From the sequence record OZ035727.1: DNA of 44,005 nt. One strand, given 5' to 3'. The stretch is from Vectrevirus T205P4. Positions 330-31,493 of the stretch are shown one piece after another (position 1 is the first letter of the stretch; each line of letters opens with the position of its first letter). The position numbers and the translations under genes were made by a program. Below the pieces are notes generated by a model. It had not been told where the DNA came from and ran no database searches. It saw only the letters and a list, made by a program, of their open reading frames with translations.

Positions 330-2227
330 TGGCTAAGGCAAGAGAATCACAAGCGGAGGCTCTTGCCAGATGGGAGATGCTACAGGAGTTACAGCAGACC
401 TTTCCTTACACAGCGGAAGGTTTGCTTCTCTTTGCAGATACAGTTATTCATAACTTAATTGCAGGCAACCCTCATCTGATTCGTATGCAGGCGGATATCT
501 TGAAGTTCCTATTTTACGGACACAAGTACCGCCTCATCGAAGCGCCTCGTGGTATCGCTAAGACAACATTATCAGCAATCTATACGGTATTCCGTATTAT
601 TCATGAACCGCATAAGCGTATCATGGTTGTGTCCCAAAACGCCAAGCGAGCAGAGGAAATCGCAGGTTGGGTAGTTAAAATCTTCCGTGGCTTAGACTTT
701 CTTGAGTTTATGCTGCCGGATATCTACGCTGGGGACCGTGCATCCGTTAAGGCGTTTGAGATTCATTACACCCTCCGTGGTAGTGATAAGTCTCCTTCTG
801 TATCCTGTTACTCAATCGAAGCAGGTATGCAGGGTGCTCGTGCTGATATTATTCTAGCGGATGACGTAGAGTCGATGCAGAATGCTCGTACGGCAGCGGG
901 CCGTGCCTTGCTTGAGGAACTGACTAAGGAGTTTGAATCTATCAACCAGTTTGGGGATATCATTTACCTTGGTACACCTCAGAACGTAAACTCTATCTAC
1001 AACAACCTACCTGCTCGTGGTTACTCTGTTCGTATCTGGACTGCGCGTTACCCTTCAGTAGAGCAAGAGCAATGTTATGGCGACTTCCTTGCACCTATGA
1101 TTGTTCAAGATATGAAGGACAACCCAGCACTTCGCTCAGGGTACGGGTTGGATGGTAATAGTGGTGCACCTTGTGCCCCTGAAATGTATGATGATGAAGT
1201 CCTGATTGAGAAGGAAATCTCTCAGGGTGCTGCTAAGTTCCAGCTTCAGTTCATGCTTAACACTCGCATGATGGATGCTGACAGATACCCATTACGCCTG
1301 AACAATCTAATCTTCACCTCGTTTGGTACAGAGGAAGTCCCTGTGATGCCTACGTGGAGTAATGATTCCATAAACATCATTGGTGATGCACCTAAGTATG
1401 GTAACAAGCCTACGGATTTCATGTACAGACCTGTAGCTCGCCCATACGAATGGGGTGCTGTCTCCCGCAAGATTATGTATATTGACCCTGCGGGTGGTGG
1501 TAAGAATGGGGACGAGACGGGTGTAGCCATCGTATTCCTGCACGGCACATTCATTTATGTGTATCAGTGCTTTGGTGTACCTGGCGGATACCGAGAATCG
1601 TCCCTGAATCGCATTGTGCAGGCCGCAAAGCAGGCTGGTGTTAAAGAGGTATTCATTGAGAAGAACTTTGGTCATGGCGCGTTTGAGGCGGTAATTAAGC
1701 CGTACTTTGAACGAGAGTGGCCTGTAACTCTGGAAGAGGATTACGCCACCGGACAGAAAGAGTTGCGTATCATTGAGACGCTGGAGCCGCTCATGGCAGC
1801 CCATAGGCTTATCTTCAATGCAGAGATGGTGAAGTCAGACTTTGAGTCGGTACAGCACTATCCGCTTGAACTACGCATGTCCTACAGTCTTTTCAATCAA
1901 ATGTCGAACATAACGATTGAGAAGAACAGCCTCCGGCACGATGACCGCCTAGACGCCCTGTATGGCGCTATACGGCAATTAACTTCTCAGATAGACTATG
2001 ACGAGGTTACACGGATTAATCGCCTCAGAGCGCAGGAGATGCGCGATTACATCCATGCTATGAATACACCTCATCTACGCAGGGCAATGCTATATGGAGA
2101 TTACGGTACTGAGCGAAGAGTGACCAACACTTCCGTAGCGATGCAGCAGCGAGTTTACGGGCAGAACTGCCGAAATAAATCGGCAAGCAGAAATACACTT
2201 TCTGCAAGGATTTCAAGGACTTATTAA
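326..2227 (+). CDS. Terminase large subunit (T7 gp19-like), 633 aa
   Basis: Long ORF with ATPase-type P-loop-like region (EAPRGIAKTT) and the size and position expected of a T7-group large terminase. Confidence 0.92.
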   Translation: MMAKARESQAEALARWEMLQELQQTFPYTAEGLLLFADTVIHNLIAGNPHLIRMQADILKFLFYGHKYRLIEAPRGIAKTTLSAIYTVFRIIHEPHKRIMVVSQNAKRAEEIAGWVVKIFRGLDFLEFMLPDIYAGDRASVKAFEIHYTLRGSDKSPSVSCYSIEAGMQGARADIILADDVESMQNARTAAGRALLEELTKEFESINQFGDIIYLGTPQNVNSIYNNLPARGYSVRIWTARYPSVEQEQCYGDFLAPMIVQDMKDNPALRSGYGLDGNSGAPCAPEMYDDEVLIEKEISQGAAKFQLQFMLNTRMMDADRYPLRLNNLIFTSFGTEEVPVMPTWSNDSINIIGDAPKYGNKPTDFMYRPVARPYEWGAVSRKIMYIDPAGGGKNGDETGVAIVFLHGTFIYVYQCFGVPGGYRESSLNRIVQAAKQAGVKEVFIEKNFGHGAFEAVIKPYFEREWPVTLEEDYATGQKELRIIETLEPLMAAHRLIFNAEMVKSDFESVQHYPLELRMSYSLFNQMSNITIEKNSLRHDDRLDALYGAIRQLTSQIDYDEVTRINRLRAQEMRDYIHAMNTPHLRRAMLYGDYGTERRVTNTSVAMQQRVYGQNCRNKSASRNTLSARISRTY

Positions 2228-2247
2228 TTACTGGACACTATAGAAGG
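2226..2247 (+). promoter_or_regulatory. Phage RNAP promoter P1 (AATTACTGGACACTATAGAAGG)
   Basis: Matches the window-wide 23-nt consensus; sits immediately after the terminase stop. Confidence 0.7.
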
Positions 2248-2379
2248 AAGGCCCAGATAATAAGAGAAATAACAAGGATAATATAGTTAACCTAGGTTAT
2301 ATAGGTTACTATAGTATGGGTGTACTCCTGTACACCCTATTCCTACTTACTATTTACTTATATGTATAAGGAGTATTAG

Positions 2380-2661
2380 ATGGCTAATGATTATAGTGAT
2401 CAACCTTTAACTGGTCGATATGACCGTAAGCAGATTACACCGACCAGTGAGGCATTAATGCTCCCTGTTGTTACAGAGGAGTCTATTACGAAGAAAGCCA
2501 ATGTTATCAATGATGCAACCAAATCTGGTAAACAGAAAGCAGCAATGGTATGTCGTCCTGTAGGTGGCACTCTTGAGATTGCCATTGCTACTGGTAGCAA
2601 AGAGGATGCAGATTGGTTGTCTGTTAAAATGGACAGCGTTGGTCTTATTACACCGGCTTAA
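2380..2661 (+). CDS. Hypothetical protein, 93 aa, paralog A of a tandem pair
   Basis: AAGGAG RBS; shares a motif skeleton (SGKQK-AMV ... IAIA-GS ... W ... TP) with the next ORF. Confidence 0.6.
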   Translation: MANDYSDQPLTGRYDRKQITPTSEALMLPVVTEESITKKANVINDATKSGKQKAAMVCRPVGGTLEIAIATGSKEDADWLSVKMDSVGLITPA

Positions 2662-3887: not shown

Positions 3888-3910
3888 ATTTACTGGACAC
3901 TATAGAAGAG
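3888..3910 (+). promoter_or_regulatory. Phage RNAP promoter P2 (ATTTACTGGACACTATAGAAGAG) driving the tailspike genes
   Basis: Near-perfect consensus copy 80 nt upstream of the tailspike 1 start. Confidence 0.8.
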
Positions 3911-3989: not shown

Positions 3990-5888
3990 ATGGCTAAATT
4001 AACCAAACCTAATACTGAAGGAATCTTGCATAAAGGACAATCTTTGTATGAGTACCTTGATGCGAGAGTTTTAACATCAAAGCCGTTTGGTGCTGTAGGT
4101 GACGCCACTACTGATGATACGGAGGTTATAGCTGCTTCATTAAACTCTCAGAAAGCTGTCACAATCTCAGACGGTGTATTCTCTAGCTCTGGTATTAATA
4201 GTAATTACTGTAACTTAGACGGTAGAGGTAGTGGGGTGCTAAGTCACCGTTCCAGTGCAGGTAACTACTTAGTATTTAACAATCCACGTACAGGTCGCTT
4301 AAGTAATATTACGGTAGAAAGTAATAAGGCGACTGATACAACTCAGGGACAGCAGGTATCTCTTGCTGGTGGAAGTGATGTTACTGTAAGTGACGTTAAC
4401 TTCTCAAACGTTAAAGGTACTGGTTTCAGTTTAATCGCATACCCTAATGATGCGCCACCTGATGGACTTATGATTAAAGGCATTCGAGGTAGCTATTCAG
4501 GCTATGCTACTAATAAGGCAGCCGGATGCGTACTTGCTGACTCCTCAGTTAACTCCCTCATAGATAACGTCATTGCTAAGAACTACCCTCAGTTCGGAGC
4601 AGTAGAGTTGAAAGGTACAGCCAGTTACAACATAGTCAGTAATGTTATAGGGGCAGATTGCCAGCATGTAACTTACAACGGCACCGAAGGGCCAATAGCT
4701 CCTTCTAATAACCTTATCAAGGGGGTGATGGCTAATAACCCTAAGTATGCAGCGGTTGTTGCAGGCAAAGGAAGTACGAACTTAATCTCAGACGTGCTTG
4801 TAGATTACTCAACTTCTGATGCTAGGCAGGCTCATGGTGTTACCGTAGAAGGGTCTGATAACGTCATAAATAATGTGCTTATGTCAGGATGTGATGGTAC
4901 TAACTCTTTAGGACAAGGGCAGACCGCTACAATTGCACGCTTTATAGGTACAGCTAATAACAACTATGCGTCTGTATTTCCTAGCTACAGTGCTACAGGT
5001 GTTATTACTTTCGAATCCGGCTCTACCCGTAACTTCGTAGAGGTAAAGCACCCTGGCAGGAGAAACGACCTTCTCAGTTCTGCTAGTACTATTGACGGTG
5101 CAGCTACTATTGACGGCACTAATAATAGTAACGTAGTACACGCACCTGCATTAGGGCAGTACATAGGTAGTATGTCAGGTAGGTTCGAATGGCGGATTAA
5201 GTCCATGTCACTCCCTTCAGGCGTTCTTACTTCTGCTGATAAGTACAGAATGCTTGGGGATGGTGCTGTATCATTAGCTGTAGGTGGGGGTACTTCTTCT
5301 CAAGTTCGCCTATTTACTTCTGATGGTACTTCTCGGACAGTGGCCCTCACCAACGGTAACGTGCGTCTTTCTACCAGTAGCACAGGCTATTTGCAGTTAG
5401 GTGCTGATGCAATGACCCCAGATAGTACTGGTACATACGCATTAGGTTCCGCCAGTCGAGCATGGTCTGGAGGTTTTACTCAAGCAGCATTCACTGTTAC
5501 ATCAGATGCTCGGTGTAAAACAGAACCTCTTACTATCTCAGATGCCTTACTGGATGCTTGGTCTGAAGTTGACTTTGTGCAGTTTCAGTATTTGGATCGT
5601 GTTGAGGAGAAGGGTGCAGACTCAGCTAGATGGCACTTTGGCATCATCGCTCAGCGAGCTAAGGAGGCTTTCGAACGCCACGGTATAGATGCACATCGCT
5701 ATGGCTTCTTGTGCTTCGACAGTTGGGATGATGTATACGAGGAAGATGCCAATGGCTCTCGTAAACTGATTACACCAGCAGGTTCCCGCTACGGTATTCG
5801 TTACGAGGAAGTGCTGATATTAGAGGCTGCGTTGATGCGGAGGACTATTAAGCGTATGCAGGAAGCACTAGCTTCCCTGCCTAAGTAA
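3990..5888 (+). CDS. Tailspike protein 1 (632 aa): beta-helix depolymerase with C-terminal intramolecular chaperone domain; K5-lyase/endosialidase-type architecture
   Basis: AGGAGA RBS before ATG at 3990 (MAKLTKPNTEG...); repetitive beta-helix-like middle; C-terminal SDARCK...RWHFGIIAQRAKEAFERHGID...YEEVLILEA resembles the autocleaving chaperone domain of endosialidase/K5 lyase tailspikes. Confidence 0.88.
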   Translation: MAKLTKPNTEGILHKGQSLYEYLDARVLTSKPFGAVGDATTDDTEVIAASLNSQKAVTISDGVFSSSGINSNYCNLDGRGSGVLSHRSSAGNYLVFNNPRTGRLSNITVESNKATDTTQGQQVSLAGGSDVTVSDVNFSNVKGTGFSLIAYPNDAPPDGLMIKGIRGSYSGYATNKAAGCVLADSSVNSLIDNVIAKNYPQFGAVELKGTASYNIVSNVIGADCQHVTYNGTEGPIAPSNNLIKGVMANNPKYAAVVAGKGSTNLISDVLVDYSTSDARQAHGVTVEGSDNVINNVLMSGCDGTNSLGQGQTATIARFIGTANNNYASVFPSYSATGVITFESGSTRNFVEVKHPGRRNDLLSSASTIDGAATIDGTNNSNVVHAPALGQYIGSMSGRFEWRIKSMSLPSGVLTSADKYRMLGDGAVSLAVGGGTSSQVRLFTSDGTSRTVALTNGNVRLSTSSTGYLQLGADAMTPDSTGTYALGSASRAWSGGFTQAAFTVTSDARCKTEPLTISDALLDAWSEVDFVQFQYLDRVEEKGADSARWHFGIIAQRAKEAFERHGIDAHRYGFLCFDSWDDVYEEDANGSRKLITPAGSRYGIRYEEVLILEAALMRRTIKRMQEALASLPK

Positions 5889-5973: not shown

Positions 5974-7632
5974 ATGCTACAACGATTAAGTTCTTCACTA
6001 GTGAAGCACAAGAGCAAGCTAATAGGCGCTACCTATAGGCTGCTTGGTGATAAACTTTTAGAGCTAAATAGTGTATCAGATTTTGGTGCAATACCAAATC
6101 TTGAAACAGATAGTACTAATTCCATTCAAGCTGCAATTGATGCGACCCCGTCTGGTGGTACTCTAGGCTTCTATGGTGGGCCTTATAGATTTGGTACTGT
6201 TACAGTGGATAAACCAATTACACTAGTTGGAGATGCAGATTTGCAGTTTGAGTGCATTCGTATCAAGACAAGTAAGTTTCGTAGTTTCTTGACAGGAACA
6301 CTAACTGCTGCGAGATACGACAGTGCATGTCGTGCATTTCAAATCTTAGCCTATGAAGATGGGCAAGATTATGAGGACATCAAGGTACATGGTGCACGTT
6401 TCGAGGGTTTCTTCTATAACACAGACTTCCGAGGCCGCTCTTACGATGCGTCAGAAAGTGATCCTGCTAACAGAGTGGTTCGGGATACCTCTATTATGGG
6501 CTGTACTTCAGTTCAGCCTAAAGATGGTAAAGACAGAGGGCACTTTCAACACGTAGGTGTAACCAATGCCAAATGCATAGGTAACTCAACGTATGGCGGC
6601 AAGAATGCCACTTCTTATAACTTCATTAATGGTAATGGCTCTTTGGTGGTTATGGGTAACTATGACCATGACAATGAATATGGCTCATTAGAGATTGAGA
6701 ATAACAAGATAAGCTATGGTGTGGTTACTGGTAATATCTTCCATAAACAACTATGGATAGATGATACTAGCAACATTAATGTAATAGGTAACACCTGCAC
6801 AGATAGGATTTACATTACTGCACAATCTAACAACTCTGAGAACGTATCAGTAGTGGGAAACAATGTACCACGCATCTACGTCAGTAAGTTTGGTCAAAGC
6901 CCAACAGGTCGTCACCGTAACTTGACCATACGTGGTAATCATATCACTGGCAAGGATGTTCCTAACTGTATATTCTTAGACGATTCTGTGGATTCCGCTT
7001 CTATTGAGGGTAATGATTGTTATGGTGTATCTGGTGTTAGAGGCATAGCCATTACTCGTCATGCAGATGCTAACCATACAGTGCGTCATAATAACTTACA
7101 TGGCACTAACTTGCTCTTTAGTGGTTCGGGTGGCAAAGTTTATAGTTATGACAACTTTGATGTTGGAGTTGATGAATCACCTGTGACAGACAGAACTGAC
7201 GCAGTGCACATTGACAACCTTCTTCGTGTAAATGATGAGTACCTTGATTTGCCAGGAAAGTACCTATACAAATCTAAGTATACAAGAGACATTACACAAG
7301 GAGGCTCCACCACTATTGAGTTACCTATAACCACAAGTGGTACTTTGGCTTTTCGTGGTATTAGTTTATGGGTTCTTATCCGTAACACTTCTACTGGTAA
7401 CTTGTCTTCTTATCGTGTCGATGGAAGACATGCAGTAAGTGGTTCTTCTGTGACTGTTAGTTTTGGAGAGAAGTATGGGGTATTAGGGGTGAATACTGGT
7501 GATGTTACTATTAGTAATGATGCCTCTACGACTAATCTTATTCGTATCAAGGTAAGCAATGAGCATGTAAGTCAGACAATGCAGGTCACAGTTGTACCAG
7601 AGGTAACAAGCAGATTGGGAACTGAAGAGTAA
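5974..7632 (+). CDS. Tailspike protein 2 (552 aa), right-handed beta-helix (pectate-lyase-like) receptor-binding/depolymerase protein
   Basis: AAGGAGG RBS; repeated VxGN/NxxxG beta-helix rungs (VIGNTCTDRIYIT, VVGNNVPRIYVS, IRGNHITGKD); second spike gene directly after spike 1, as in K1-5/SP6-type phages. Confidence 0.85.
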   Translation: MLQRLSSSLVKHKSKLIGATYRLLGDKLLELNSVSDFGAIPNLETDSTNSIQAAIDATPSGGTLGFYGGPYRFGTVTVDKPITLVGDADLQFECIRIKTSKFRSFLTGTLTAARYDSACRAFQILAYEDGQDYEDIKVHGARFEGFFYNTDFRGRSYDASESDPANRVVRDTSIMGCTSVQPKDGKDRGHFQHVGVTNAKCIGNSTYGGKNATSYNFINGNGSLVVMGNYDHDNEYGSLEIENNKISYGVVTGNIFHKQLWIDDTSNINVIGNTCTDRIYITAQSNNSENVSVVGNNVPRIYVSKFGQSPTGRHRNLTIRGNHITGKDVPNCIFLDDSVDSASIEGNDCYGVSGVRGIAITRHADANHTVRHNNLHGTNLLFSGSGGKVYSYDNFDVGVDESPVTDRTDAVHIDNLLRVNDEYLDLPGKYLYKSKYTRDITQGGSTTIELPITTSGTLAFRGISLWVLIRNTSTGNLSSYRVDGRHAVSGSSVTVSFGEKYGVLGVNTGDVTISNDASTTNLIRIKVSNEHVSQTMQVTVVPEVTSRLGTEE

Positions 7633-7781
7633 TGCCATTAATCAAATCAGTTAAGCAAAGTGCTGTACGTCAGAACACAGAAGAACTCATTCAATCAGGA
7701 CGTGACCCTAAGCAAGCTTATGCGATTGCCAAGGATGTACAACGTCGTGCCTTGAAGAAACCTTCTGCATCTTCTGCGTAA
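7632..7781 (+). CDS. Hypothetical small protein, 49 aa
   Basis: TAATG stop/start overlap with tailspike 2; below track cutoff; no recognisable domain. Confidence 0.4.
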   Translation: MPLIKSVKQSAVRQNTEELIQSGRDPKQAYAIAKDVQRRALKKPSASSA

Positions 7782-7852
7782 GCAGGTTAATATCTTAGTA
7801 TAAACAAGGGCAGACCTAGGTTTGCTCTTAGTGTATTTACAATGGAGGTCTT

Positions 7853-7933
7853 ATGTATATACCTATGGAAGCAATAGTAGGTTGCCTATGCTTGTTGATA
7901 GGTTTCGTTATAGGCTTAATAGCAAAGCCTTAG
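7853..7933 (+). CDS. Hypothetical 26-aa hydrophobic micro-protein (MYIPMEAIVGCLCLLIGFVIGLIAKP)
   Basis: GGAGG RBS 5 nt upstream; a single predicted transmembrane helix; last ORF before the terminal non-coding region. Confidence 0.3.
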   Translation: MYIPMEAIVGCLCLLIGFVIGLIAKP

Positions 7934-7987
7934 TCCTGTACAAGGATTAACCAAAGTCAAAATTTTGATATGGTCGTGTGTGAGGTG

Positions 7988-8340
7988 TCTCGCCCTCGCC
8001 CTCGCCGGATTTCCCCCATACGGGTCCGCGCTGCGGTTGGCTTGGGAATTGGGCTGGGCTGGTCCGTCTTCAACCTGCTGCCGCAGGAAGCTCGACGGGT
8101 GGGCGAGGGCTTGCCTTGTACTCGCTTAGTGGTACACAAGGAGAACGCCTAGGAAGCGCTAGGGCACGCCTTAGTATTGGACAAGGTGATTGCCTTAGTT
8201 CAACCGCTTAGGGCTTACACGGGCCGTTTTAGGGCCATTCCTGAGCGTTTGACAGGGTGTGAGGGCGTGGGCTATCTGTTCGTTTCGCTACGCTTCACTC
8301 ACTGCTCCTCACTTCGTTCGTCGCTGCGGTAGCCTGATGT
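7988..8340. other. GC-rich non-coding block, candidate genome terminus / direct terminal repeat
   Basis: Clearly more GC-rich than the rest of the window by eye; begins TCTCGCCCTCGCCCTCGCC and contains TTTCCCCCATACGGG, resembling the T7 left-end motif TTCCCCCATAGGGGG; no credible ORF. Confidence 0.45.
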
Positions 8341-8700
8341 GTACCTTAGGTTATTACTTGATGGATAGCTTAGGTTATAGCTTAGTGGCCTACCTTAGTT
8401 ATAACCTTAGTGCATAGCTTAGTATCAGCTTAGTAGTGTACCTTAGTAAGTCTTAGTGTCTTCTCTTAGTGATTGCACATGCAAGCATGTAAGATGCCAT
8501 TAGGTCGCGGTCGGTAGACCGCTAAAGAAGGAGAATAGTAATAAGATGCAGTAGGAGGAACACCAGAAACCTAGCCAACCTAGCCTATCCTAGCTCTGTA
8601 TCTATTGCTTTTCCTTAGTCTCACACGTTAGACAACCTAGGTTTGTCTTAGTAGTTGCGACATGTATCACATAAATAATCTATCTTAGTGCGATTTAGTG
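8340..8700. repeat. Array of short CTTAGT/CTTAGG motifs (more than 15 copies) in the terminal non-coding region
   Basis: Motif recurs at irregular 10-25 nt spacing (e.g. agcttaggttatagcttagtggcctaccttagttataaccttagtg...); analogous to the CCTAAAG repeats near the T7 left end. Confidence 0.6.
8618..8633. repeat. Degenerate copy of the 16-bp palindrome (GTCTCACACGTTAGAC, 1 mismatch)
   Basis: One substitution relative to the GTCTCACACGTGAGAC family. Confidence 0.4.
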
Positions 8701-8729
8701 TTGACATAGGCAGTTAACAGGTATACATT
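8701..8729 (+). promoter_or_regulatory. Host sigma70-type early promoter (TTGACA-N17-TACATT)
   Basis: Perfect -35 hexamer, 17-bp spacer, 4/6 -10; position equivalent to T7 A1-A3 early promoters. Confidence 0.6.
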
Positions 8730-10182: not shown

Positions 10183-10208
10183 TATTTAGATGACACTATA
10201 AGAGAAGA
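10183..10208 (+). promoter_or_regulatory. Variant phage-promoter-like sequence (ATTTAGATGACACTATAAGAGAAG)
   Basis: Matches the consensus upstream half, but the initiating region is ATAAGAG instead of ATAGAAG; may be weak or non-functional. Confidence 0.35.
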
Positions 10209-11467: not shown

Positions 11468-14095
11468 ATGCAAGACTTACACGCTATTCAACTTCAACTT
11501 GAAGAAGAAATGTTTAACGGCGGTATCCGTCGCTTTGAAGCGGACCAACAACGCCAGATTGCATCCGGTAATGAATCAGACACGGCATGGAATCGCCGCT
11601 TATTGTCTGAGTTAATCGCGCCAATGGCTGAAGGCATTCAGGCATACAAGGAAGAGTATGAAGGTAAAAGAGGCCGTGCACCGCGTGCATTGGCTTTCAT
11701 TAACTGCGTTGAAAACGAAGTGGCAGCATATATCACGATGAAAATCGTTATGGACATGCTGAATACAGACGTTACCTTACAAGCCATCGCTATGAATGTA
11801 GCAGACCGCATCGAGGACCAAGTACGTTTTAGCAAGCTGGAAGGTCACGCCGCCAAATACTTTGAGAAAGTTAAGAAGTCACTTAAGGCAAGTAAGACTA
11901 AATCATATCGCCATGCGCACAACGTAGCGGTCGTGGCTGAGAAGTCTGTATCTGACCGTGACGCGGACTTTTCCCGCTGGGAGGCATGGCCCAAAGATAC
12001 CTTGTTGCAAATAGGTATGACACTGCTAGAAATCTTGGAGAATAGCGTATTCTTTAACGGGCAACCTGTTTTCCTCCGCACCTTGCGCACTAATGGCGGC
12101 AAACACGGTGTTTACTACTTACAGACCAGCGAACACGTTGGCGAGTGGATAACTGCATTTAAGGAACATGTAGCGCAGCTTAGTCCTGCCTATGCGCCTT
12201 GCGTCATCCCTCCGCGTCCGTGGGTGTCGCCTTTTAATGGTGGATTCCACACTGAGAAGGTAGCAAGTCGTATCCGTCTTGTTAAAGGCAACCGCGAGCA
12301 CGTACGCAAGCTCACTAAGAAGCAAATGCCAGCCGTTTACAAGGCTGTTAATGCTTTGCAGGCAACTAAATGGCAGGTTAACAAGGAAGTATTGCAGGTT
12401 GTTGAAGATGTAATTCGTCTCGACCTTGGTTATGGTGTGCCTTCCTTTAAGCCGCTTATCGACCGCGAGAACAAGCCAGCTAATCCAGTGCCGTTAGAGT
12501 TCCAGCACCTGCGAGGCCGTGAACTTAAAGAGATGCTAACGCCGGAACAATGGCAAGCCTTCATCAACTGGAAAGGCGAATGTACCAAGCTGTATACCGC
12601 TGAAACTAAGCGCGGCAGCAAGTCGGCGGCAACCGTTCGCATGGTCGGGCAGGCCCGTAAATACAGCCAGTTTGACGCAATATACTTCGTGTATGCACTG
12701 GATAGCCGTTCGCGCGTTTATGCGCAATCTAGCACGCTCTCGCCGCAATCAAACGACCTAGGCAAGGCGTTACTGCGTTTCACCGAAGGGCAGCCTCTAA
12801 ATAGCTCTGAGGCGCTTAAGTGGTTTTTGGTGAACGGGGCGAATAACTGGGGTTGGGATAAGAAAACCTTTAACGTGCGCACCGCTAACGTGCTGGATGG
12901 TGAATTCCAAGACATGTGCCGCGACATTGCAGCCGACCCGCTGACCTTCACTCAATGGGTGAATGCAGATTCACCTTATGGCTTTCTTGCGTGGTGCTTT
13001 GAATACGCGCGTTATCTGGATGCACTGGATGAAGGAACACAAGATAAATTCATGACGCATTTACCAGTACATCAAGATGGTAGTTGTTCTGGTATCCAGC
13101 ACTATAGCGCGATGTTACGCGATGAAGTAGGTGCGAAAGCGGTAAACCTCAAGCCGTCAGACGAGCCGCAAGATATTTATGGGGCCGTTGCGCAAGTAGT
13201 TATCCAGAAAAACTATGCTTACATGAATGCAGATGATGCAGAAACTTTCACATCTGGAAGCGTAACACTTACAGGTGCAGAACTGCGTAGCATGGCTGGC
13301 GCGTGGGATATGATAGGTATCACTCGCGGCTTAACCAAAAAGCCGGTAATGACCTTGCCTTACGGCTCCACCCGCTTAACCTGCCGTGAGTCAGTGATTG
13401 ATTATATCGTTGATTTGGAAGAAAAAGAGGCACAACGAGCTATTGCAGAAGGGCGGACGGCGAATCCTGTTCACCCTTTTGATAATGACCGCAAAGATTA
13501 CCTGACACCGGGCGCAGCTTACAACTATATGACTGCTTTAATTTGGCCTTCTATCTCTGAGGTTGTTAAAGCTCCTATAGTGGCGATGAAAATGATTCGC
13601 CAGCTTGCACGATTCGCAGCTAAAAGAAACGAAGGGCTAGAGTACACCTTACCTACTGGTTTCATCTTGCAACAAAAGATAATGGCTACCGACATGCTAC
13701 GCGTATCCACTTGCTTGATGGGTGAAATCAAGATGAGTCTACAGATTGAGACTGATGTAGTGGATGAAACGGCAATGATGGGCGCTGCCGCTCCTAACTT
13801 TGTTCACGGGCATGATGCTAGTCATCTCATCCTGACTGTATGTGACCTCGTTGACAAGGGCATTACATCTATCGCAGTCATCCATGATTCCTTTGGTACT
13901 CATGCAGGCCGTACAGCAGACCTGCGGGATAGCTTAAGGGCAGAAATGGTGAAGATGTATCAAGGTCGTAATGCTCTGCAAAGCCTGTTAGATGAGCATG
14001 AGGAGCGCTGGTTAGTAGACACCGGAATCCAAGTGCCAGAGCAAGGGGAGTTTGACCTTAACGAGATATTAGTATCTGACTATTGCTTTGCATAA
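11468..14095 (+). CDS. Single-subunit DNA-dependent RNA polymerase, SP6-type, 875 aa
   Basis: N-terminus [32 protein letters not shown]... and C-terminus ...[10 protein letters not shown]...DYCFA match my recollection of SP6 RNAP; conserved catalytic region [18 protein letters not shown]. Confidence 0.97.
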
Positions 14096-14103
14096 TATTG
14101 ATA

Positions 14104-14133
14104 GGCCATTCCTTCGGGAGTGGCCTTTTCTTT
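14104..14133 (+). terminator. Terminator hairpin after the RNAP gene (GGCCATTCC-TTCG-GGAGTGGCC then TTTTCTTT)
   Basis: 9-bp stem with UUCG tetraloop and a U-tract. Confidence 0.7.
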
Positions 14134-14167
14134 ACCTGATACCTGTAACATTTCATTAACATAAACT

Positions 14168-14183
14168 GTCTCACACGTGAGAC
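14168..14183. repeat. 16-bp palindrome GTCTCACACGTGAGAC, copy 1
   Basis: Perfect inverted repeat, 2 nt upstream of promoter P3. Confidence 0.8.
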
Positions 14184-14184
14184 T

Positions 14185-14208
14185 CATTTACCGGACACTA
14201 TAGGAGAA
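14185..14208 (+). promoter_or_regulatory. Phage RNAP promoter P3 (CATTTACCGGACACTATAGGAGAA)
   Basis: Consensus match; first of two tandem promoters between RNAP and primase genes. Confidence 0.7.
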
Positions 14209-14260
14209 ACCATCGGAGATGGGAAAGAGAAGGAAGATAAAGGTAATAAAAGGCTATAAA

Positions 14261-14320
14261 GGAAGTAATAGGTATCAAAGGTTATATAGGTTTACCTAGG
14301 AATACCTATTACCTTCTTCC
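14261..14320. repeat. Purine-rich segment with inverted repeat (GGAAGTAATAGGTAT ... ATACCTATTACCTTCTTCC) in putative replication origin
   Basis: About 11-bp perfect arms separated by 26 nt, embedded in AG-rich / CT-rich flanks that are themselves roughly complementary. Confidence 0.5.
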
Positions 14321-14361
14321 TTCCTCTTATTACTACTTAGAGGAAAGGGCAGACTTAGGTT

Positions 14362-14377
14362 GTCTCACATGTGAGAC
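14362..14377. repeat. 16-bp palindrome GTCTCACATGTGAGAC, copy 2
   Basis: Perfect palindrome, 4 nt upstream of promoter P4. Confidence 0.8.
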
Positions 14378-14381
14378 TTCG

Positions 14382-14405
14382 TATTTACCGGACAGTATAG
14401 ATAAG
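14382..14405 (+). promoter_or_regulatory. Phage RNAP promoter P4 (TATTTACCGGACAGTATAGATAAG)
   Basis: Consensus-like with CAGTATAGAT variant; precedes the gp1.1-like and primase/helicase genes. Confidence 0.6.
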
Positions 14406-14430
14406 ACTAACTCACTTTGGAGATTTAACT

Positions 14431-14562: not shown

Positions 14563-16551
14563 ATGGCTATTATTCAGAATGTACCGTGTCCTGCCTGTCA
14601 AAAGAATGGACATGATGTTACCGGCAACCATCTCATGATCTTTGATGATGGTGCTGGCTATTGCAACCGTGGTCACTTCCACGATAACGGAAAGCCATAC
14701 TACCATAAGCCCGAAGGTGGCATCGAGATAACCGAGTTGCCTATTACTGGCAATATCAAATATACACCTTCTCAGTTCAAAGAGATGGAGAAGGAAGGGA
14801 AGATAAGCGACCCTAAGCTACGCGCCATCGCACTTGGTGGTATGCGTATGAAAGACCGTTGGGAGGTTATGAATGAGCAAGAAAGGGCAGACCAAGAAGC
14901 AGAGTGGAAACTTGATGTTGAATGGTTCCTCACGCTTAAGCGTAAGAACCTTGTATCCCGACACATTCGCGGCGACATCGCAGCACTATATGATGTGCGA
15001 GTGGGCCATGATGAAGAAGGAAGAGTCAATCGTCACTACTACCCCCGCTTCGAGAAAGGTGAGCTAGTAGGCGCTAAGTGCCGTACCTTACCTAAAGACT
15101 TTAAGTTTGGTCATTTAGGTAAACTATTTGGTATGCAAGATCTTTTCGGTATGAATACTTTGTCTCACGTGTTAGACAAGGGAAGACGAAAGGATTGCTT
15201 GCTTATCGTAGGCGGCGAACTTGATGCACTAGCAGCCCAGCAGATGCTTCTTGATTCCGCCAAGGGCACTAAGTGGGAAGGACAACCATATCATGTGTGG
15301 TCTGTCAACAAGGGTGAGTCTTGCCTTGAAGAGATAGTGCAGAACCGTGAACATATCGCTCAATTCAAGAAGATTATATGGGGCTTTGATGGGGATGAGG
15401 TTGGGCAGAAGCAGAACCAACAAGCGGCTCGCCTGTTTCCTGGTAAATCCTATATCCTTGAGTATCCTTCTGGGTGTAAAGATGCTAACAAGGCATTGAT
15501 GGCTGGCAAGGCTAAAGAATTTGTGGATGCTTGGTTTAATGCCAAGTCATCTGATGAAGTCTTTGGTAGCCAGATTAAATCTATCGCATCTCAAAGGGAT
15601 AAGCTCAAGGCTGCACGTCCCGAGCAAGGATTGTCATGGCCTTGGCCTAAGCTGAACAAGGTAACGCTAGGTATTCGTAAGAACCAGCTTATCATTGTAG
15701 GTGCAGGGTCTGGTGTAGGTAAGACTGAGTTCCTTCGTGAAGTAGTTAAGCACCTCATTGAAGAACACGGTGAATCTGTAGGCATCATTTCTACAGAAGA
15801 CCCGATGGTCAAGGTGTCCCGTGCTTTTATCGGCAAGTGGATTGATAAGCGTATTGAGTTACCGCCAACCAACGACCCGAAAGAAGATGGATACCGTGAG
15901 GTGTTCGACTACACCGAGGAAGAAGCTAACGCCGCCATTGATTATGTAGCTGATACAGGTAAGCTGTTTGTAGCTGACCTAGAGGGTGACTATTCGATGG
16001 AAAAGGTAGAGCAAACTTGCCTAGAGTTTGAGGCTATGGGCATTTCTAATATCATCATTGATAACTTAACGGGGATTAAATTAGATGAGCGTGCTTTTGG
16101 TGGGAAGGTTGGTGCACTTGATGAATGCGTCAAGCGGATTGGTACTATCAAAGACCGACACCCGGTTACTATATTCCTTGTATCACACCTTACACGTCCT
16201 CCGGCAAACCGTACCCAACACGAAGAAGGTGGCGAAGTTATCCTTTCTGACTTCCGAGGCTCAGGAGCTATCGGATTCTGGGCATCTTACGCCTTGGGGA
16301 TTGAGCGTAATACAAGAGCTGAAACGCTTGACGAAAGGACTACCACGTACATCTCATGTGTCAAAGACCGCGACCAAGGTATCTGGACTGGAACCAAGGT
16401 CATGCTTAAGGGTGACATTCAAACCGGACGTTTAATGGAACCACAAGCCCGTACTAAGTCATTTGATACAGGTGAAGCAAGGCAACAAGAAGTACCAGAT
16501 TTACCGGACACTATAGAAGAGACTAACTTCGATGAAGAAAGTGAGTTCTGA
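14563..16551 (+). CDS. DNA primase/helicase (T7 gp4-like), 662 aa
   Basis: N-terminal Cys4 zinc ribbon (CPACQKNGHD...CNRGH), helicase Walker A GAGSGVGKT, acidic C-terminus ...FDEESEF ending in Phe as in T7 gp4. Confidence 0.93.
   Translation: MAIIQNVPCPACQKNGHDVTGNHLMIFDDGAGYCNRGHFHDNGKPYYHKPEGGIEITELPITGNIKYTPSQFKEMEKEGKISDPKLRAIALGGMRMKDRWEVMNEQERADQEAEWKLDVEWFLTLKRKNLVSRHIRGDIAALYDVRVGHDEEGRVNRHYYPRFEKGELVGAKCRTLPKDFKFGHLGKLFGMQDLFGMNTLSHVLDKGRRKDCLLIVGGELDALAAQQMLLDSAKGTKWEGQPYHVWSVNKGESCLEEIVQNREHIAQFKKIIWGFDGDEVGQKQNQQAARLFPGKSYILEYPSGCKDANKALMAGKAKEFVDAWFNAKSSDEVFGSQIKSIASQRDKLKAARPEQGLSWPWPKLNKVTLGIRKNQLIIVGAGSGVGKTEFLREVVKHLIEEHGESVGIISTEDPMVKVSRAFIGKWIDKRIELPPTNDPKEDGYREVFDYTEEEANAAIDYVADTGKLFVADLEGDYSMEKVEQTCLEFEAMGISNIIIDNLTGIKLDERAFGGKVGALDECVKRIGTIKDRHPVTIFLVSHLTRPPANRTQHEEGGEVILSDFRGSGAIGFWASYALGIERNTRAETLDERTTTYISCVKDRDQGIWTGTKVMLKGDIQTGRLMEPQARTKSFDTGEARQQEVPDLPDTIEETNFDEESEF
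16498..16521 (+). promoter_or_regulatory. Phage RNAP promoter P5 (GATTTACCGGACACTATAGAAGAG), inside the 3' end of the primase/helicase gene
   Basis: Perfect consensus copy about 30 nt before the helicase stop codon. Confidence 0.7.
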
Positions 16552-16588: not shown

Positions 16589-16627
16589 AGGCTCTTATTA
16601 AGTACATTAAATAACTGGAGATTGATT

Positions 16628-17311
16628 ATGTATAAATTAGTATTGAATGCAGGTGATTATGTTCGTAACATCAATGAAGCCTCACGTCGTTATCATTGCC
16701 GTGGTGTAGTGGCTCGTGTAAGTGAGAACATGTATCATGTAGAGTATGAGGATGGTATTAAGGCTTCTTACCACAAGAAAACAGCACATAAATATCTTGA
16801 AAAGATTGTAGAGATAAACAATCAATGTAAGTGCATACATGATGAGGTTTGCGATAAATGTGCTCGCCAGATGCTTAAGAATTTCCTAGCTCCTCTTTAT
16901 TATGGTGCTGGCCCTCAAACACTAGCAGAGTACATGGCAGAAAAGAAAACCACAATTAAGAAAGAGCGCCGCAATGTAATCACTGGTAAGACTCAAAGTG
17001 AAATGATTAAACTATGTGGCACTGCATTAGGTGTTACGCAGTTTAACACTCGTGCTCTTGGTAAATCCACAGGACAAGCTATGGTGAAAATTGGTGAAGC
17101 TATGATGCATCCAAATGTACCTGTACGAATCATGGATGTTGACCATGCAATCACAGAGCATGGCACACCACGGCGTGTAGCTAATAATCATTTTGCCGAC
17201 ACTATAGAAGGTATTATTCGTAAGCAAGAGTTGAAGGGTCTTCACATCTTAAATGGTGAAGAATTACTGTACCTACCTATCGTTACTGAAGAAACATACG
17301 TGAATATCTAA
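16628..17311 (+). CDS. Hypothetical protein, about 227 aa, with Cys cluster (CKCIHDEVCDKC)
   Basis: GGAGA RBS before ATG at 16628; no recognisable catalytic motif. Confidence 0.65.
   Translation: MYKLVLNAGDYVRNINEASRRYHCRGVVARVSENMYHVEYEDGIKASYHKKTAHKYLEKIVEINNQCKCIHDEVCDKCARQMLKNFLAPLYYGAGPQTLAEYMAEKKTTIKKERRNVITGKTQSEMIKLCGTALGVTQFNTRALGKSTGQAMVKIGEAMMHPNVPVRIMDVDHAITEHGTPRRVANNHFADTIEGIIRKQELKGLHILNGEELLYLPIVTEETYVNI
17189..17212 (+). promoter_or_regulatory. Possible weak phage promoter (CATTTTGCCGACACTATAGAAGGT) internal to the 16628 gene
   Basis: Core GACACTATAGAAGG conserved, upstream half deviates at 3 positions. Confidence 0.35.
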
Positions 17312-17749: not shown

Positions 17750-17765
17750 GTCTCACACGTGAGAC
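17750..17765. repeat. 16-bp palindrome GTCTCACACGTGAGAC, copy 4
   Basis: Perfect palindrome 11 nt after the 17530 ORF stop. Confidence 0.8.
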
Positions 17766-17796
17766 AGCCTTTCATCATATTGATTGGAGGTGCATT

Positions 17797-17904
17797 ATGC
17801 CACGTGATTATGATTCTGATTGGGATTTCCAAGATTCAATGCAACCTAAACCAGAAAGGAGGGAGGATGAGTTCGAAACAGATCAAATGTATGAGGATTT
17901 TTAC
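17797..17904 (+). CDS. Hypothetical acidic micro-protein, 35 aa (MPRDYDSDWDFQDSMQPKPERREDEFETDQMYEDFY)
   Basis: TTGGAGG RBS 6 nt upstream; overlaps the HNH gene start; could instead be untranslated leader. Confidence 0.3.
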
Positions 17905-18346
17905 TAACTACATCCTCTATTCCGACGGTCGTATCTTTAGTGATAAGAAGAAGAGATACCTAACAGGTACTCTTGATAGCTACGGTTACCGTCAAGTTAA
18001 ACTTAATGGAGACTTATACCTCTTACACAGGTTAGTTGCATTATATTTCATTCCTAATCCCGATAACTTACCTGAAGTTGATCACGTAGATTTTAACCGA
18101 GACAATAATTGTGTATCTAATCTACGGTGGGTTTCCAGAAGAACCAACCTAGAGCATAGCAAGGTAAGACGCTGTACTGCACAGGCTAAGTTTTATAACT
18201 TCGTAGACCCTGACGGTAATATTGTTACAGTGTATGGTCTATCTTCTTTCTGCAAAGAGAATGGACTAAGCCAAGCAGCGATGCACCATGTGTGGTCTGG
18301 TAATAGAAATCATCACAAAGGTTGGACTAAATATGTTGAATGTTGA
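17867..18346 (+). CDS. Free-standing HNH homing endonuclease, about 160 aa
   Basis: GYRQVKL...LHRLVALYFIPNP...VDHVDFNRDNN...NLRWV...N pattern typical of phage HNH endonucleases; AGGAGGGAGG RBS before ATG at 17867. Confidence 0.85.
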   Translation: MSSKQIKCMRIFTNYILYSDGRIFSDKKKRYLTGTLDSYGYRQVKLNGDLYLLHRLVALYFIPNPDNLPEVDHVDFNRDNNCVSNLRWVSRRTNLEHSKVRRCTAQAKFYNFVDPDGNIVTVYGLSSFCKENGLSQAAMHHVWSGNRNHHKGWTKYVEC

Positions 18347-21093: not shown

Positions 21094-21150
21094 GTTATAC
21101 TCAAGGTCACTTACGAGTGGCCTTTATGAATAACTTAACTGGAGAGTATT

Positions 21151-21411
21151 ATGATTAAATCACAGAAGTATTTCTCAACTAAAGATCGTAAGGTAGGTTT
21201 TGAAATCAAAGTTTGGGAAGACGGACACATTACTATTATTTACGAAGGTAAAGGTTCTAATGGTATGATGCTACGTAGATGCCGTACATTCACAAAGAAA
21301 GAATGTATGCATATGTCTGAATGCATGTTTCTTTACATCATTGCTGATGATATTAAAGGTATGAAGCTAATTGTATCTCTACCTTTAATACCTAAATCTT
21401 TGTTAGGTTGA
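21151..21411 (+). CDS. Hypothetical protein, 86 aa
   Basis: GGAGAG RBS. Confidence 0.55.
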   Translation: MIKSQKYFSTKDRKVGFEIKVWEDGHITIIYEGKGSNGMMLRRCRTFTKKECMHMSECMFLYIIADDIKGMKLIVSLPLIPKSLLG

Positions 21412-21433
21412 TTTACTGGACACTATAGAAGGA
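21410..21433 (+). promoter_or_regulatory. Phage RNAP promoter P6 (GATTTACTGGACACTATAGAAGGA)
   Basis: Consensus copy overlapping the stop of the 21151 gene. Confidence 0.8.
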
Positions 21434-21881: not shown

Positions 21882-22181
21882 ATGATGGAAGAAGTGATTC
21901 AAGCTAAACATGTAGGTATCATCTTTCGTGATCTAGAGCAGCGTAAAGTTGCAGGTTACACTCGTCTGGCTAAAGAATACGATACAGCAATCACTACTGT
22001 GGAACAAGCAGATGCCTATCGTGGTCCAGAGTTTACTCAAGGTGAAACTTGTCATCAATTGAGCCTTTCACTTTGTGACACTATGGCTAGTGTAAATGTA
22101 CAAGAGGTTGAAGATGGTGAATGTGTTAGTTATGTCTACCCTCTCGACACTATTGCACGTATTAAGGTAGTTCATAAGTAA
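21882..22181 (+). CDS. Hypothetical protein, 99 aa
   Basis: AAGGGG RBS; tandem ATG ATG. Confidence 0.55.
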   Translation: MMEEVIQAKHVGIIFRDLEQRKVAGYTRLAKEYDTAITTVEQADAYRGPEFTQGETCHQLSLSLCDTMASVNVQEVEDGECVSYVYPLDTIARIKVVHK

Positions 22182-22202
22182 TTACTGGACACTATAGAAC
22201 AA
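22180..22202 (+). promoter_or_regulatory. Phage RNAP promoter P7 (AATTACTGGACACTATAGAACAA)
   Basis: Consensus-like, with AAC in place of AAG after the start site. Confidence 0.7.
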
Positions 22203-23294: not shown

Positions 23295-23310
23295 GTCTCA
23301 CGTGTGAGAC
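23295..23310. repeat. 16-bp palindrome GTCTCACGTGTGAGAC, copy 5 (reverse orientation of the CACG variant)
   Basis: Perfect palindrome 14 nt upstream of promoter P8. Confidence 0.8.
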
Positions 23311-23324
23311 AAATCGGTGTCCGG

Positions 23325-23348
23325 TATTTACTGGACACTATAGAAGAG
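23325..23348 (+). promoter_or_regulatory. Phage RNAP promoter P8 (TATTTACTGGACACTATAGAAGAG)
   Basis: Perfect consensus. Confidence 0.8.
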
Positions 23349-25443: not shown

Positions 25444-26443
25444 GCTTCGCAGCTTGTACAAAGACTCCGAGGTACTTGATGCAATCGAGCAAGCTACCGA
25501 CGAGAAAGGTAATGTTAATTACAATGAGATGGCACGTGTATTATCGTGTCACCCTGTGGGTAAGAAGATTACCCGCCAGTTGGCTCGATACTGGCATGGT
25601 CAATTCAAGAAGACCAAGAAGAATGGTGATTATTACCAGACCCTTCTGCAAGAAGATAAGCGTATCAAAGAAGAGCGTAAGCTCAGGACTCCTGACCGCT
25701 ACGAGGATTTGGCTATTGTACCATTGCCTGACTCGCCTCATCGAAGTGTACTGGTAATCCCTGATACTCATGCACCTTATGAGCATCCAGATACCTTAGA
25801 GTTCCTTGCAGCAGTCGCGGCACGTTACCGTCCAGATACAGTGGTTCACTTAGGAGATGAGGCAGATAAACACGCCCTCTCCTTCCATGACTCTGACCCG
25901 AATCTGGATAGTGCTGGCATGGAGCTAGAGAAGGCTCGTGTCTTCATGCACAAATTGCACAAGATGTTCCCTGTGATGAGACTGTGTCACTCCAACCACG
26001 GCTCTATGCACTTCCGTAAGGCAAGCGCTAAGGGCATTCCTGTGCAATACCTGCGCACCTACCGTGAAGTCTTCTTCCCGCAGGGAGGTGGCGACCAGTG
26101 GGACTGGCAGCATACTCATGTTCTTGAGCTACCTAATGGTGAACAGGTGGCGTTCAAGCATCAACCTGCTGGCTCTGTTCTAGCAGATGCAGCGCATGAG
26201 CGCATGAACCTAGTGTGCGGTCACTTGCATGGTAAGATGTCTGTGGAGTACGCACGTAATACACATGAACAGTATTGGGCTGTGCAGGGTGGCTGCTTAA
26301 TTGATGAGTCATCCCGTGCCTTTGCCTATGGGCGTGAGTCTAAATACAAGCCAGCATTAGGTTGTGTGGTTATTTTGGAAGGTGTGCCTCATATTGTCCC
26401 GATGCAAACCAATAGCGACAACCGTTGGATTGGCAAGATTTAG
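25436..26443 (+). CDS. Calcineurin-like metallophosphoesterase, about 335 aa (TTG start proposed; alternative ATG at 25526)
   Basis: Motifs VIPDTHAPYEH, HLGDE, GHLHG; AAGGAGG RBS 6 nt before TTG at 25436. Confidence 0.7.
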   Translation: MGKLRSLYKDSEVLDAIEQATDEKGNVNYNEMARVLSCHPVGKKITRQLARYWHGQFKKTKKNGDYYQTLLQEDKRIKEERKLRTPDRYEDLAIVPLPDSPHRSVLVIPDTHAPYEHPDTLEFLAAVAARYRPDTVVHLGDEADKHALSFHDSDPNLDSAGMELEKARVFMHKLHKMFPVMRLCHSNHGSMHFRKASAKGIPVQYLRTYREVFFPQGGGDQWDWQHTHVLELPNGEQVAFKHQPAGSVLADAAHERMNLVCGHLHGKMSVEYARNTHEQYWAVQGGCLIDESSRAFAYGRESKYKPALGCVVILEGVPHIVPMQTNSDNRWIGKI

Positions 26444-26461
26444 TTGACACTATAGAACAAA
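26438..26461 (+). promoter_or_regulatory. Phage RNAP promoter P9 (GATTTAGTTGACACTATAGAACAA)
   Basis: Consensus-like, closest to the canonical SP6 form in its upstream half; overlaps the phosphoesterase stop. Confidence 0.65.
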
Positions 26462-30545: not shown

Positions 30546-31465
30546 TGTCTTTCTCATTTACTGAACCGTCAACCACTCACCCTACTGCTGAAGAGGGTCC
30601 GGTAGAAACCAAGGAGGTAACAACTGATGCTGCTACTACTGATGATCCTGCTGACGCTGGCACTGCTGTACAAGATGACAATGCTGGTGCACAACCTACT
30701 GAAGACACCGGAGGAGAAGCTTCTGGACAGCCTTCAGAAAAAGGAGACAATGGCGGAGAGAATGGTGAACCTAAGCCAGATGATACCGCGACCGACACTG
30801 AGGAAGTGCAATACTTCTTCGGAGAACATGAAGTAACAGTAGACATCCCACAGGATGTAACTGACAGCCTTAAAGAGAAAGGCATTGATGCCAAGCAGGT
30901 TGCCAAGGAACTCTATTCCAAAGGTGGCAAGTTTGAACTGTCAGATGCAACCAAGCAGAAATTGTATGATGCTTTTGGCAAGTTTGCGGTAGATGCTTAC
31001 CTGTCAGGTCTTAAGGCTCAAAATGAAGCCTTCTTCCTGAAAGAAGCCAACGCAGCTAAAGAGTTGGAAGCAGCTAACACCCAACGCTTCTCTGATGTTT
31101 CTAAGGAAATTGGTGGCGAAGAAGGTTGGTCCCGTCTTGAGGAGTGGGCGCTTGAAACGCTATCCGATGACGAACTCACGGCATTCAATGCTGTGATGGA
31201 GTCTGGCAACCAGTACCTCCAGCAGTACGCTGTGCGTGAACTGGAGAGCCGCCGTAAGGCTGCACAGGGTGATGACAAACCAAATCTGATTGAACCCTCT
31301 GCACCTGCTACTGCATCTGAAGATAATGGCCCCCTCTCTCGTGAGCAGTACCTGCGTGAGATGATGACTCTTAGCTCTCGCTTCGGTACAGACAAGAAAG
31401 CTGCTGCTGAGTATCAGGCTAAACTGGATGCTCGCCGTCGTGCTGGTATGGCTCGAGGTCTGTAA
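30545..31465 (+). CDS. Capsid assembly (scaffolding) protein, T7 gp9-like, 306 aa
   Basis: Acidic low-complexity N-terminus and coiled-coil-like C-terminus; between portal and capsid genes. Confidence 0.75.
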   Translation: MSFSFTEPSTTHPTAEEGPVETKEVTTDAATTDDPADAGTAVQDDNAGAQPTEDTGGEASGQPSEKGDNGGENGEPKPDDTATDTEEVQYFFGEHEVTVDIPQDVTDSLKEKGIDAKQVAKELYSKGGKFELSDATKQKLYDAFGKFAVDAYLSGLKAQNEAFFLKEANAAKELEAANTQRFSDVSKEIGGEEGWSRLEEWALETLSDDELTAFNAVMESGNQYLQQYAVRELESRRKAAQGDDKPNLIEPSAPATASEDNGPLSREQYLREMMTLSSRFGTDKKAAAEYQAKLDARRRAGMARGL

Positions 31466-31468
31466 TCA

Positions 31469-31493
31469 GTATTTACTGGACACTATAGAAGGG
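31469..31493 (+). promoter_or_regulatory. Phage RNAP promoter P10 (TATTTACTGGACACTATAGAAGGG) for the capsid gene, with 5' leader hairpin GGGAGA-AATG-TCTCCC
   Basis: Perfect consensus; the transcript would begin with a 6-bp stem-loop. Confidence 0.85.

Follow-up and report, generated by a model that had tools for sequence, protein, structure and literature searches.

The stretch analysed here, called the window throughout, is the whole 44,005-nucleotide (nt) sequence of Vectrevirus T205P4 (record OZ035727.1), and its subject is a family of 23-base-pair (bp) promoter-like sites carried together with a gene for a single-subunit RNA polymerase (RNAP). By megablast, the first 20 kilobases (kb) of the window are 91-95% identical to genomes of Vectrevirus (K1E/K1-5 group, Molineuxvirinae, Autographiviridae), with OZ035792 as the top match (94.6% identity over 92% of the query). 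The gene order is that of K1-5 (AY370674), K1E (NC_007637) and SP6 (NC_004831). Relative to the linear genome, the window is circularly permuted and starts in the small-terminase gene; the left and right genome ends of K1-5 and K1E, which form the terminal repeat, both map to ~7988-8274, collapsed to one copy.

Promoter-like sites and polymerase gene in the window

A sequence-only reading of the window had proposed a family of twelve phage promoters that differ from the canonical SP6 promoter at positions -12 to -10. Three pattern scans, with the consensus of that reading, the core GACACTATAGAAG and the SP6 consensus, together recover all twelve sites, every one on the + strand (Table 1). The family is real and far above shuffled expectation: in dinucleotide-preserving shuffles, the 23-mer full consensus is expected 0.00 times and the 13-mer core 1.26 times, versus 13 occurrences found. 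Most of the proposed coordinates are exact, three of them (10183, 16498 and 17189) being one base too low, and the proposed number falls short by a 13th candidate at 121-143 that had been overlooked. All 13 sites are co-oriented with the genes, and 11 of the predicted starts are intergenic or lie at stop codons or gene ends, the next gene following after 32-229 nt.

The base-count matrix of the twelve sites gives ATTTACTGGACACTATAGAAG(A/G)(A/G), in agreement with the proposed consensus except at position +6, where A (6 sites) is slightly ahead of G (5 sites). The block from -9 to -1 is invariant, with a G at -5 in site 14383 as the sole exception. Upstream of it, position -12 is C in nine sites, position -11 is T in seven and C in four, and position -10 is G in nine. 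Nine sites match the 23-bp K1E-type form (ATTTACYGGACACTATAGAAG..) with at most one mismatch between -17 and -1, and all of these strongest sites carry CYG at -12 to -10. At the remaining three the triplet is different, and two of these (GAT at 10184 and GTT at 26438) have T at -10, as SP6 does. The SP6 triplet GGT (ATTTAGGTGACACTATAG) is present at no site in the window, and the closest approach to the SP6 consensus, with two mismatches, is site 26438, as had been noted. The departure from SP6 falls exactly at -12 to -10, CYG versus GGT.

The peculiarities of individual sites also stand as described earlier. The start from site 16499 falls inside the 3´ end of the primase/helicase open reading frame (ORF; 14563-16551), the weak candidate at 17190 lies within the gp10 ORF and has four mismatches between -17 and -1, and site 10184, after the ocr-like gene, reads TATA-AGAG in place of TATA-GAAG. 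Further near-matches were rejected as promoters. A minus-strand one (GCCACTATAGGAG; 13592-13572) within the polymerase gene has a mismatch at -8 and nothing matching upstream; it is also found in K1-5 and K1E and is probably coding sequence. Two on the + strand, at 22069 and 22138, have core mismatches and no upstream match.

The polymerase encoded in the window has 98% identity with its counterparts in K1-5 and K1E, 86% with that of SP6 and 36% with that of T7; its best solved structural relative is T7 RNAP. When eight polymerases are aligned on the invariant T7 residues R746 and G753, the specificity loop is that of K1-5 and K1E, and the comparison with SP6 and K1-5 that the sequence-only reading had suggested gives Ser versus the Arg of SP6 at the position of T7 N748. 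Within the loop core, this is the only difference from SP6 apart from conservative E/D, I/V and V/I changes. The SP6-type loop (...MLRVRTCLMGD..., with Arg at the T7-N748 position) is not that of the window.

Table 1. Positions of the polymerase gene, the promoter-like sites, the palindrome copies and the example prophage loci; window coordinates unless another sequence is named
Feature	Position	Strand	Basis, relatives or context
Cognate single-subunit RNAP gene (875 amino acids, aa), the predicted partner of the sites	11468..14095	+	protein comparison
Specificity loop	13679..13771	+	identical in K1-5 and K1E
Codon Ser747, aligned with T7 N748 (T7 contact to -11/-10); SP6 Arg	13706..13708	+	alignment
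Codon Arg68, AT-rich recognition loop, T7 R96 position; SP6 Lys	11669..11671	+	alignment
13th promoter-like site, CAATACTGGACACTATAGAAGAA	121..143	+	within small-terminase gene (30-329)
Predicted promoter over large-terminase stop codon, 5´ of gp41	2226..2248	+	orthologues K1-5 37593, K1E 40033, SP6 37773
Predicted consensus promoter 5´ of first tailspike gene	3888..3910	+	orthologues K1-5 39265, K1E 41717, SP6 39910
Predicted variant promoter, ATTTAGATGACACTATA-AGAGAA, +1 A, +2 G	10184..10206	+	3´ of ocr-like gene, 1.27 kb 5´ of RNAP gene
First of predicted promoter pair after early terminator (14103-14126); palindrome 14168-14183 just 5´	14186..14208	+	orthologues K1-5 6020, K1E 6824, SP6 6118
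Second of predicted promoter pair, G at -5 (GACAGTATAG)	14383..14405	+	32 nt 5´ of gp8; G also in K1-5 (6204) and K1E (7008)
Predicted consensus promoter within 3´ end of primase/helicase gene, serving gp10	16499..16521	+	orthologues K1-5 8320, K1E 9342, SP6 8411
Weak candidate, ATTTTGCCGACACTATAGAAGGT, inside gp10 (ORF 16622-17311)	17190..17212	+	kept in K1-5 (9010) and K1E (10190)
Predicted consensus promoter 5´ of gp15	21411..21433	+	pattern scans, count matrix
Predicted promoter over gp15.5 stop, 5´ of gp16	22180..22202	+	pattern scans, count matrix
Predicted consensus promoter 5´ of gp18; palindrome 23295-23310 precedes	23326..23348	+	pattern scans
Predicted promoter with GTT at -12 to -10, over gp22 end, 5´ of gp23	26438..26460	+	closest to SP6; SP6 orthologue 17428 has AGT
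Predicted consensus promoter 54 nt 5´ of major capsid gene	31471..31493	+	pattern scans, count matrix
Palindrome copies, 16 nt each	8618, 14168, 14362, 15162, 16573, 17750, 23295, 39653
Prophage cassette, IMG/VR prophage contig	L028:3920-4160
Prophage cassette, E. coli M217 chromosome	L132:6220-6640
Prophage cassette, Shigella phage SfIV	L139:517-757

Relation to the K1-5, K1E and SP6 systems

An orthology scan of the window, K1-5, K1E and SP6 with the core GACACTATAG finds, for every site in the window, a counterpart at the matching map position in K1-5 and K1E, mostly identical base for base. The two phages have the same 23-bp sequence and the same number and placement of sites, down to the variants (A-start, G at -5, GTT and intragenic). 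The A-start site corresponds to K1-5 2014 and K1E 2779, and the GTT site to K1-5 17755 and K1E 19097. The differences are a few single bases, e.g., T at -7 in K1-5 8320, CTA in K1-5 13352 and, at the A-start site, GCT in K1-5 versus GAT in the window. The canonical SP6 promoters (ATTTAGGTGACACTATAGAAG) are identical to those of the window from -17 to -13 and from -9 to +4 and lie at orthologous genome positions, but have GGT in place of CYG; individual SP6 sites at the same map positions carry GGT, GGG or AGT. The SP6 helicase promoter (8411) likewise lies inside its helicase gene (6472-8457). The SP6 counterpart of the gp10 site (9112) lies about as far from the end of the gene, within DNA in which the two phages can no longer be aligned; this favours a functional role over a coincidence of coding. 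The GenBank records of K1-5, K1E, SP6 and ACG-C91, which hold coding-sequence features only, contain no promoter features, and the published promoter table of KBNP1315 was set aside because its motif is unrelated.

The co-variation of loop and promoter was followed in a panel of 21 genomes and loci (the window, K1-5, K1E, SP6 and 17 IMG/VR loci), in 19 of which the polymerase loop is readable. Without exception among the 19, polymerases with the loop RVSTCLMGE are accompanied by promoters in which CYG predominates, and those with the loop RVRTCLMGD by promoters in which GGN does. These genomes are interrelated, so the pattern reflects one or few evolutionary events and not 19 independent trials. 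More distant Molineuxvirinae, i.e., Proteus phage PM93 (AATTArAGACCACTATAGAAG), Klebsiella phage K22PH164C1 (TAATAGTGGCGAGTATAGAAG) and Erwinia phage Tapenade (AAtAACCACCCAGTATAGAAG), have motifs of their own with the common start TATAGAAG. The co-variation is a property of the whole K1E/K1-5 genus and is already known. A study that mined phage polymerase-promoter pairs clustered them by the residues at T7 N748, R756 and Q758 and obtained separate “K1E” and “SP6” clusters (PMC11880802). The RNAPs of K1E and K1-5 share 99% identity, and both have 85% identity with that of SP6; the C3P3 expression system is built on K1E RNAP and the K1E promoter (PMC6412113). In vitro, activity was measured for TATTTACTGGACACTATAGGAGGA, a working promoter of the SP6-like metagenomic RNAP No. 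2049, and the promoter ATTTACTGGACACTATAG was active (PMC13029058).

The sites in the window are thus almost certainly the cognate promoters of the K1E/K1-5-type (Vectrevirus) RNA polymerase predicted from the gene at 11468-14095. Promoter activity and protein-DNA contacts are inferred from T7 structures and the published use of the K1E promoter. T7 class II and III promoters in complex with T7 RNAP (1cez) have the same three parts, namely an AT-rich upstream segment, a specificity region and a CACTATAG core with a G start; R746, G753 and the catalytic motifs are conserved between the two polymerases, although protein identity is only ~36%. Two sigma-70-like sites (TTGACA-17-TACATT) are found at 8701 and 9365, 5´ of the early genes, and a strong hairpin followed by a T-run (14103-14126) comes right after the polymerase gene. 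Host RNA polymerase would transcribe the early region including the polymerase gene and halt at this hairpin. The phage enzyme would then bind each 23-bp site and, following the T7 paradigm, fire all 13. By analogy with T7, the AT-rich loop would read -17 to -13 and the specificity loop approximately -12 to -7, while the TATA segment would melt. Initiation would take place at the G of TATA-G-AAG and proceed rightward through the genes for DNA metabolism, virion and lysis. Relative to SP6, the change of the triplet from GGT to CYG would have gone together with that from Arg to Ser at the T7-N748 position of the loop.

Three points weigh against this account of recognition. The residue at the N748 position does not by itself predict the bases at -11/-10, as Arg is found with GT, AG or TG and Ser with YG or CA, albeit in a small panel. 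A structure of an SP6-type polymerase was not found in the PDB, and the contact assignments rest on T7 (1cez). Finally, K1E and SP6 are reported not to obey the recognition rules derived from T7, a remark that the behaviour of the N748 residue in the panel fits (PMC11880802). The label “specificity-determining”, which the sequence-only reading had attached to -12 to -10, is in the same way carried over from T7 and may apply here.

The earlier description had implied that the promoter set is new, and had named as decisive against this a consensus identical to that of a known phage without co-variation in the loop. Both the consensus and the sites taken singly agree with those of K1-5 and K1E, phages sequenced long ago, and the loop does co-vary (Ser747 versus Arg). 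A new promoter specificity, that of a side branch of SP6 not seen before and served by a polymerase that evolved along with it, would be suggested by the differences from SP6 at -12 to -10 and in the specificity loop. This explanation is already refuted by the identity of sites and loop to those of K1-5 and K1E, which were sequenced two decades ago, and retains practically no probability. An RNAP at least 95% identical to that of the window is encoded in 75 INPHARED records, the exact 21-mer promoter is present in many IMG/VR Vectrevirus contigs, the K1E promoter is in use as a tool and the K1E cluster has been catalogued. The promoter set is already known, T205P4 is one more isolate of the K1E/K1-5 type, and the earlier interpretation is right but not new. 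These promoters were reportedly listed by Scholl et al. in 2004 for the K1-5/SP6 genome and by Stummeyer et al. in 2006 for K1E.

Two further explanations concern how the sites work. The change at -12 to -10 may be drift within a tolerated range, such that a K1E-type polymerase can use promoters of the SP6 type as well. RNAP No. 2049, from a genome with a consensus of the ATTTACTGG type, gave a 3.5% signal on the SP6 promoter versus ~2% on its own consensus, although this published test comprises one enzyme of undisclosed sequence, one assay and only the K1E-type-on-SP6 direction (PMC13029058). The three non-CYG sites, with the SP6-like T at -10 of 10184 and 26438 kept genus-wide, point the same way, while the clean split between loop residue and triplet across the panel and the CYG of all nine strongest sites speak for discrimination; we place such drift not far short of an even chance. 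It is also possible, though we would rather not expect it, that some of the 13 sites are not working promoters, and that 17190, 121, 14383 and 10184 are weak, regulatory or merely tolerated sequence. Both 17190, with its four mismatches, and 121, which is without the ATTTA part, lie in ORFs, where conservation among close relatives (site 121 is identical in K1-5, at 35488, and K1E, at 37182) could result from coding constraint, and no counterpart of 121 was found at the orthologous small-terminase position in SP6, PM93 and K22PH164C1. Yet 121 matches the consensus over 20 consecutive positions (-14 to +6) and deviates only at -17 to -15, and 17190 has its SP6 counterpart in DNA that has otherwise diverged beyond alignment. 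The G at -5 of site 14383 is the consensus base in related genera, and the variant at 10184 does not change across 19 genomes and lies between genes in SP6, K22PH164C1 and Tapenade.

The predicted A-start promoter, the palindrome family and neighbouring genes

The variant at 10184 belongs to a form, CACTATAAGA, in which G and A at +1 and +2 are replaced by A and G. Each of the 19 Vectrevirus and SP6-like genomes or loci compared has exactly one copy, 1.0-1.6 kb 5´ of the RNAP gene. Klebsiella phage K22PH164C1 (TGGCGAGTATAAGAT) and Erwinia phage Tapenade (CACCCACTATAAGAG) show this swap in their cognate motif, in an intergenic position 5´ of the polymerase gene; it was not found in PM93. This pattern points to a conserved and deliberately atypical promoter that would feed the gp5-gp6-polymerase block. 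Kept across at least four genera, it may provide dedicated feed-forward control of polymerase synthesis. T7 phi2.5 is an A-initiating class II promoter and resembles 10184 in that the initiating G is replaced by A in an otherwise normal core. It belongs to another phage group, whereas 10184 lies 5´ of a polymerase gene and recurs across genera, its A start being predicted.

A 16-bp palindrome, GTCTCACRYGTGAGAC, is present in eight copies in the window versus 0.28 expected (Table 1). Positional orthologues are found in K1-5, K1E and ACG-C91 and, in the form GTCYAACRYGTTGGAC, in SP6 and K22PH164C1. Three copies lie directly 5´ of promoters 14186, 14383 and 23326, and three others extend to hairpins of 13-15 bp in front of ribosome-binding sites. 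The palindrome may act in processing, stabilise RNA or bind a protein. In the region following the polymerase gene (14096-14430), the terminator hairpin is succeeded by two palindrome-plus-promoter units placed 197 nt apart. Between the units, at 14168 and 14362, lies a purine-rich stretch of AAGG repeats that is non-coding and contains inverted repeats, and the layout is kept in K1-5, K1E and SP6. This arrangement is reminiscent of the T7 phi1.1A/1.1B primary-origin region. A search of Rfam gave no family matching the palindrome hairpins or the prophage cassette described below.

Elsewhere, the window differs from its relatives in gene content. An ORF for an HNH/NUMOD homing endonuclease (17759-18346) is inserted just 5´ of the DNA polymerase gene and is missing there in the alignment with K1-5 and K1E. 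An insertion of ~270 bp relative to the same phages (21137-21409) contains an 86-aa ORF (21151-21411) that has no Pfam match and terminates exactly where promoter 21411 starts. The first tailspike gene (3999-5888) has ~94% nucleotide identity to the K5-lyase gene of K1-5 and encodes a Peptidase_S74 chaperone domain. The second (5974-7632) encodes a pectate-lyase-like spike and not a K1 endosialidase; it is 98.7% identical to that of Vectrevirus T205P5 and 89% to a tail protein of the unrelated 72-kb phage St11Ph5. By sequence comparison, the tailspike pair indicates a probable host-range module swap.

A hairpin-plus-promoter cassette in E. coli prophages

A scan of IMG/VR for exact matches to ATTTACYGGACACTATAGAAG gave 107 stretches, approximately half of which are not Vectrevirus but prophage-like contigs with one copy each in the constant context GGAGAGGCTTGTCCAACACGTTGGACAAGTTTCCTGTTTG-ATTTACTGGACACTATAGAAG-GACAGAATGCCTTCATCACTCGAATAACATCAATTAAGGAGGTTCAACATG. 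With a 241-nt query, the cassette is found in 632 of 5426 complete E. coli genomes, nearly always as a single copy, and is unannotated in most of the matches listed (for examples of loci, see Table 1). It resides in HK97/SfIV-like lambdoid prophages, in the gap between the genes for an HNH endonuclease and P27-type terminase and the iss plus lysis cassette. More precisely, it has the spanin genes on one side and the HNH/terminase genes on the other and is oriented toward iss, antisense to the late genes. The gene iss/bor marks serum resistance in extraintestinal and avian pathogenic E. coli. In scans of one genome per species, the exact cassette was not found and no copy was seen outside E. 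coli; the generic form ATTTANNNGACACTATAGAAG gave 21 matches in 596 gigabases of species representatives, which is about chance level, and none of these is enterobacterial.

The cassette resembles Vectrevirus DNA in its promoter and palindrome only. Among phages, hairpin and spacer are matched most closely by an intergenic unit of the gp17-gp18 type in Klebsiella Molineuxvirinae, which is the unit found at 23295-23348 in the window. A shared HNH module was ruled out as the source, as the HNH gene of the prophages is unrelated to that of ACG-C91. A census anchored on the downstream leader, and thus unbiased with respect to the promoter, comprised 104 copies: 66 with the exact K1E-type promoter, nine each with GACAGTATAGG and ATTTAATGG, eight with ATTTAGGTGACACTTTAG, seven with ATTTACTTG and five with CACTACAG. 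ATTTAGGTGACACTTTAG has the SP6-type triplet and is also that of Shigella phage SfIV. The arms of the palindrome vary in a compensatory way (GTCCAAC/GTTGGAC versus GTCTCAC/GTGAGAC). Downstream, a perfect ribosome-binding site is followed by a 40-codon ORF of constant length in the 12 commonest haplotypes listed (95 of 106 copies), for which no match was found in Pfam, PHROG or PADLOC. Of the 91 copies that extend far enough, 62 have iss downstream at a constant distance of 355 nt. The occurrence of K1E-type (CTG), SP6-type (GGT) and intermediate (CTT, ATG) forms together with a compensated hairpin suggests that these phages were repeatedly tracked, or exchanged DNA with the prophages, rather than that a single scar is decaying.

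One possibility, which we put forward tentatively and consider rather unlikely, is that the cassette is an infection sensor: the RNAP of an incoming K1E- or SP6-like phage would fire prophage genes, as a defence, as an abortive-infection trap or in some other response. The presence, context, distribution and patterned variation of the cassette are observations; its firing by an invading polymerase, and the purpose of this, are conjecture. It is at least as likely that the cassette is a recombination scar maintained for other reasons. A search of the literature found no description of a phage-polymerase promoter in prophages or 5´ of iss/bor.

In conclusion, the promoter family supplies a correct annotation of transcription signals for a further K1E/K1-5-like phage and once more bears out a co-variation that was already known, which in itself matters little. 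The pairing of Ser or Arg with CYG or GGT suits the engineering of orthogonal SP6-family transcription, but the K1E system is already in use. The leads to follow up are the conserved A-start promoter and the prophage cassette. Were the cassette indeed a sensor, a resident prophage would detect a specific class of virulent phages in a simple manner that can be read from sequence, in 12% of complete E. coli genomes, and this would link iss/bor to infection by the capsule-specific phages used in therapy.

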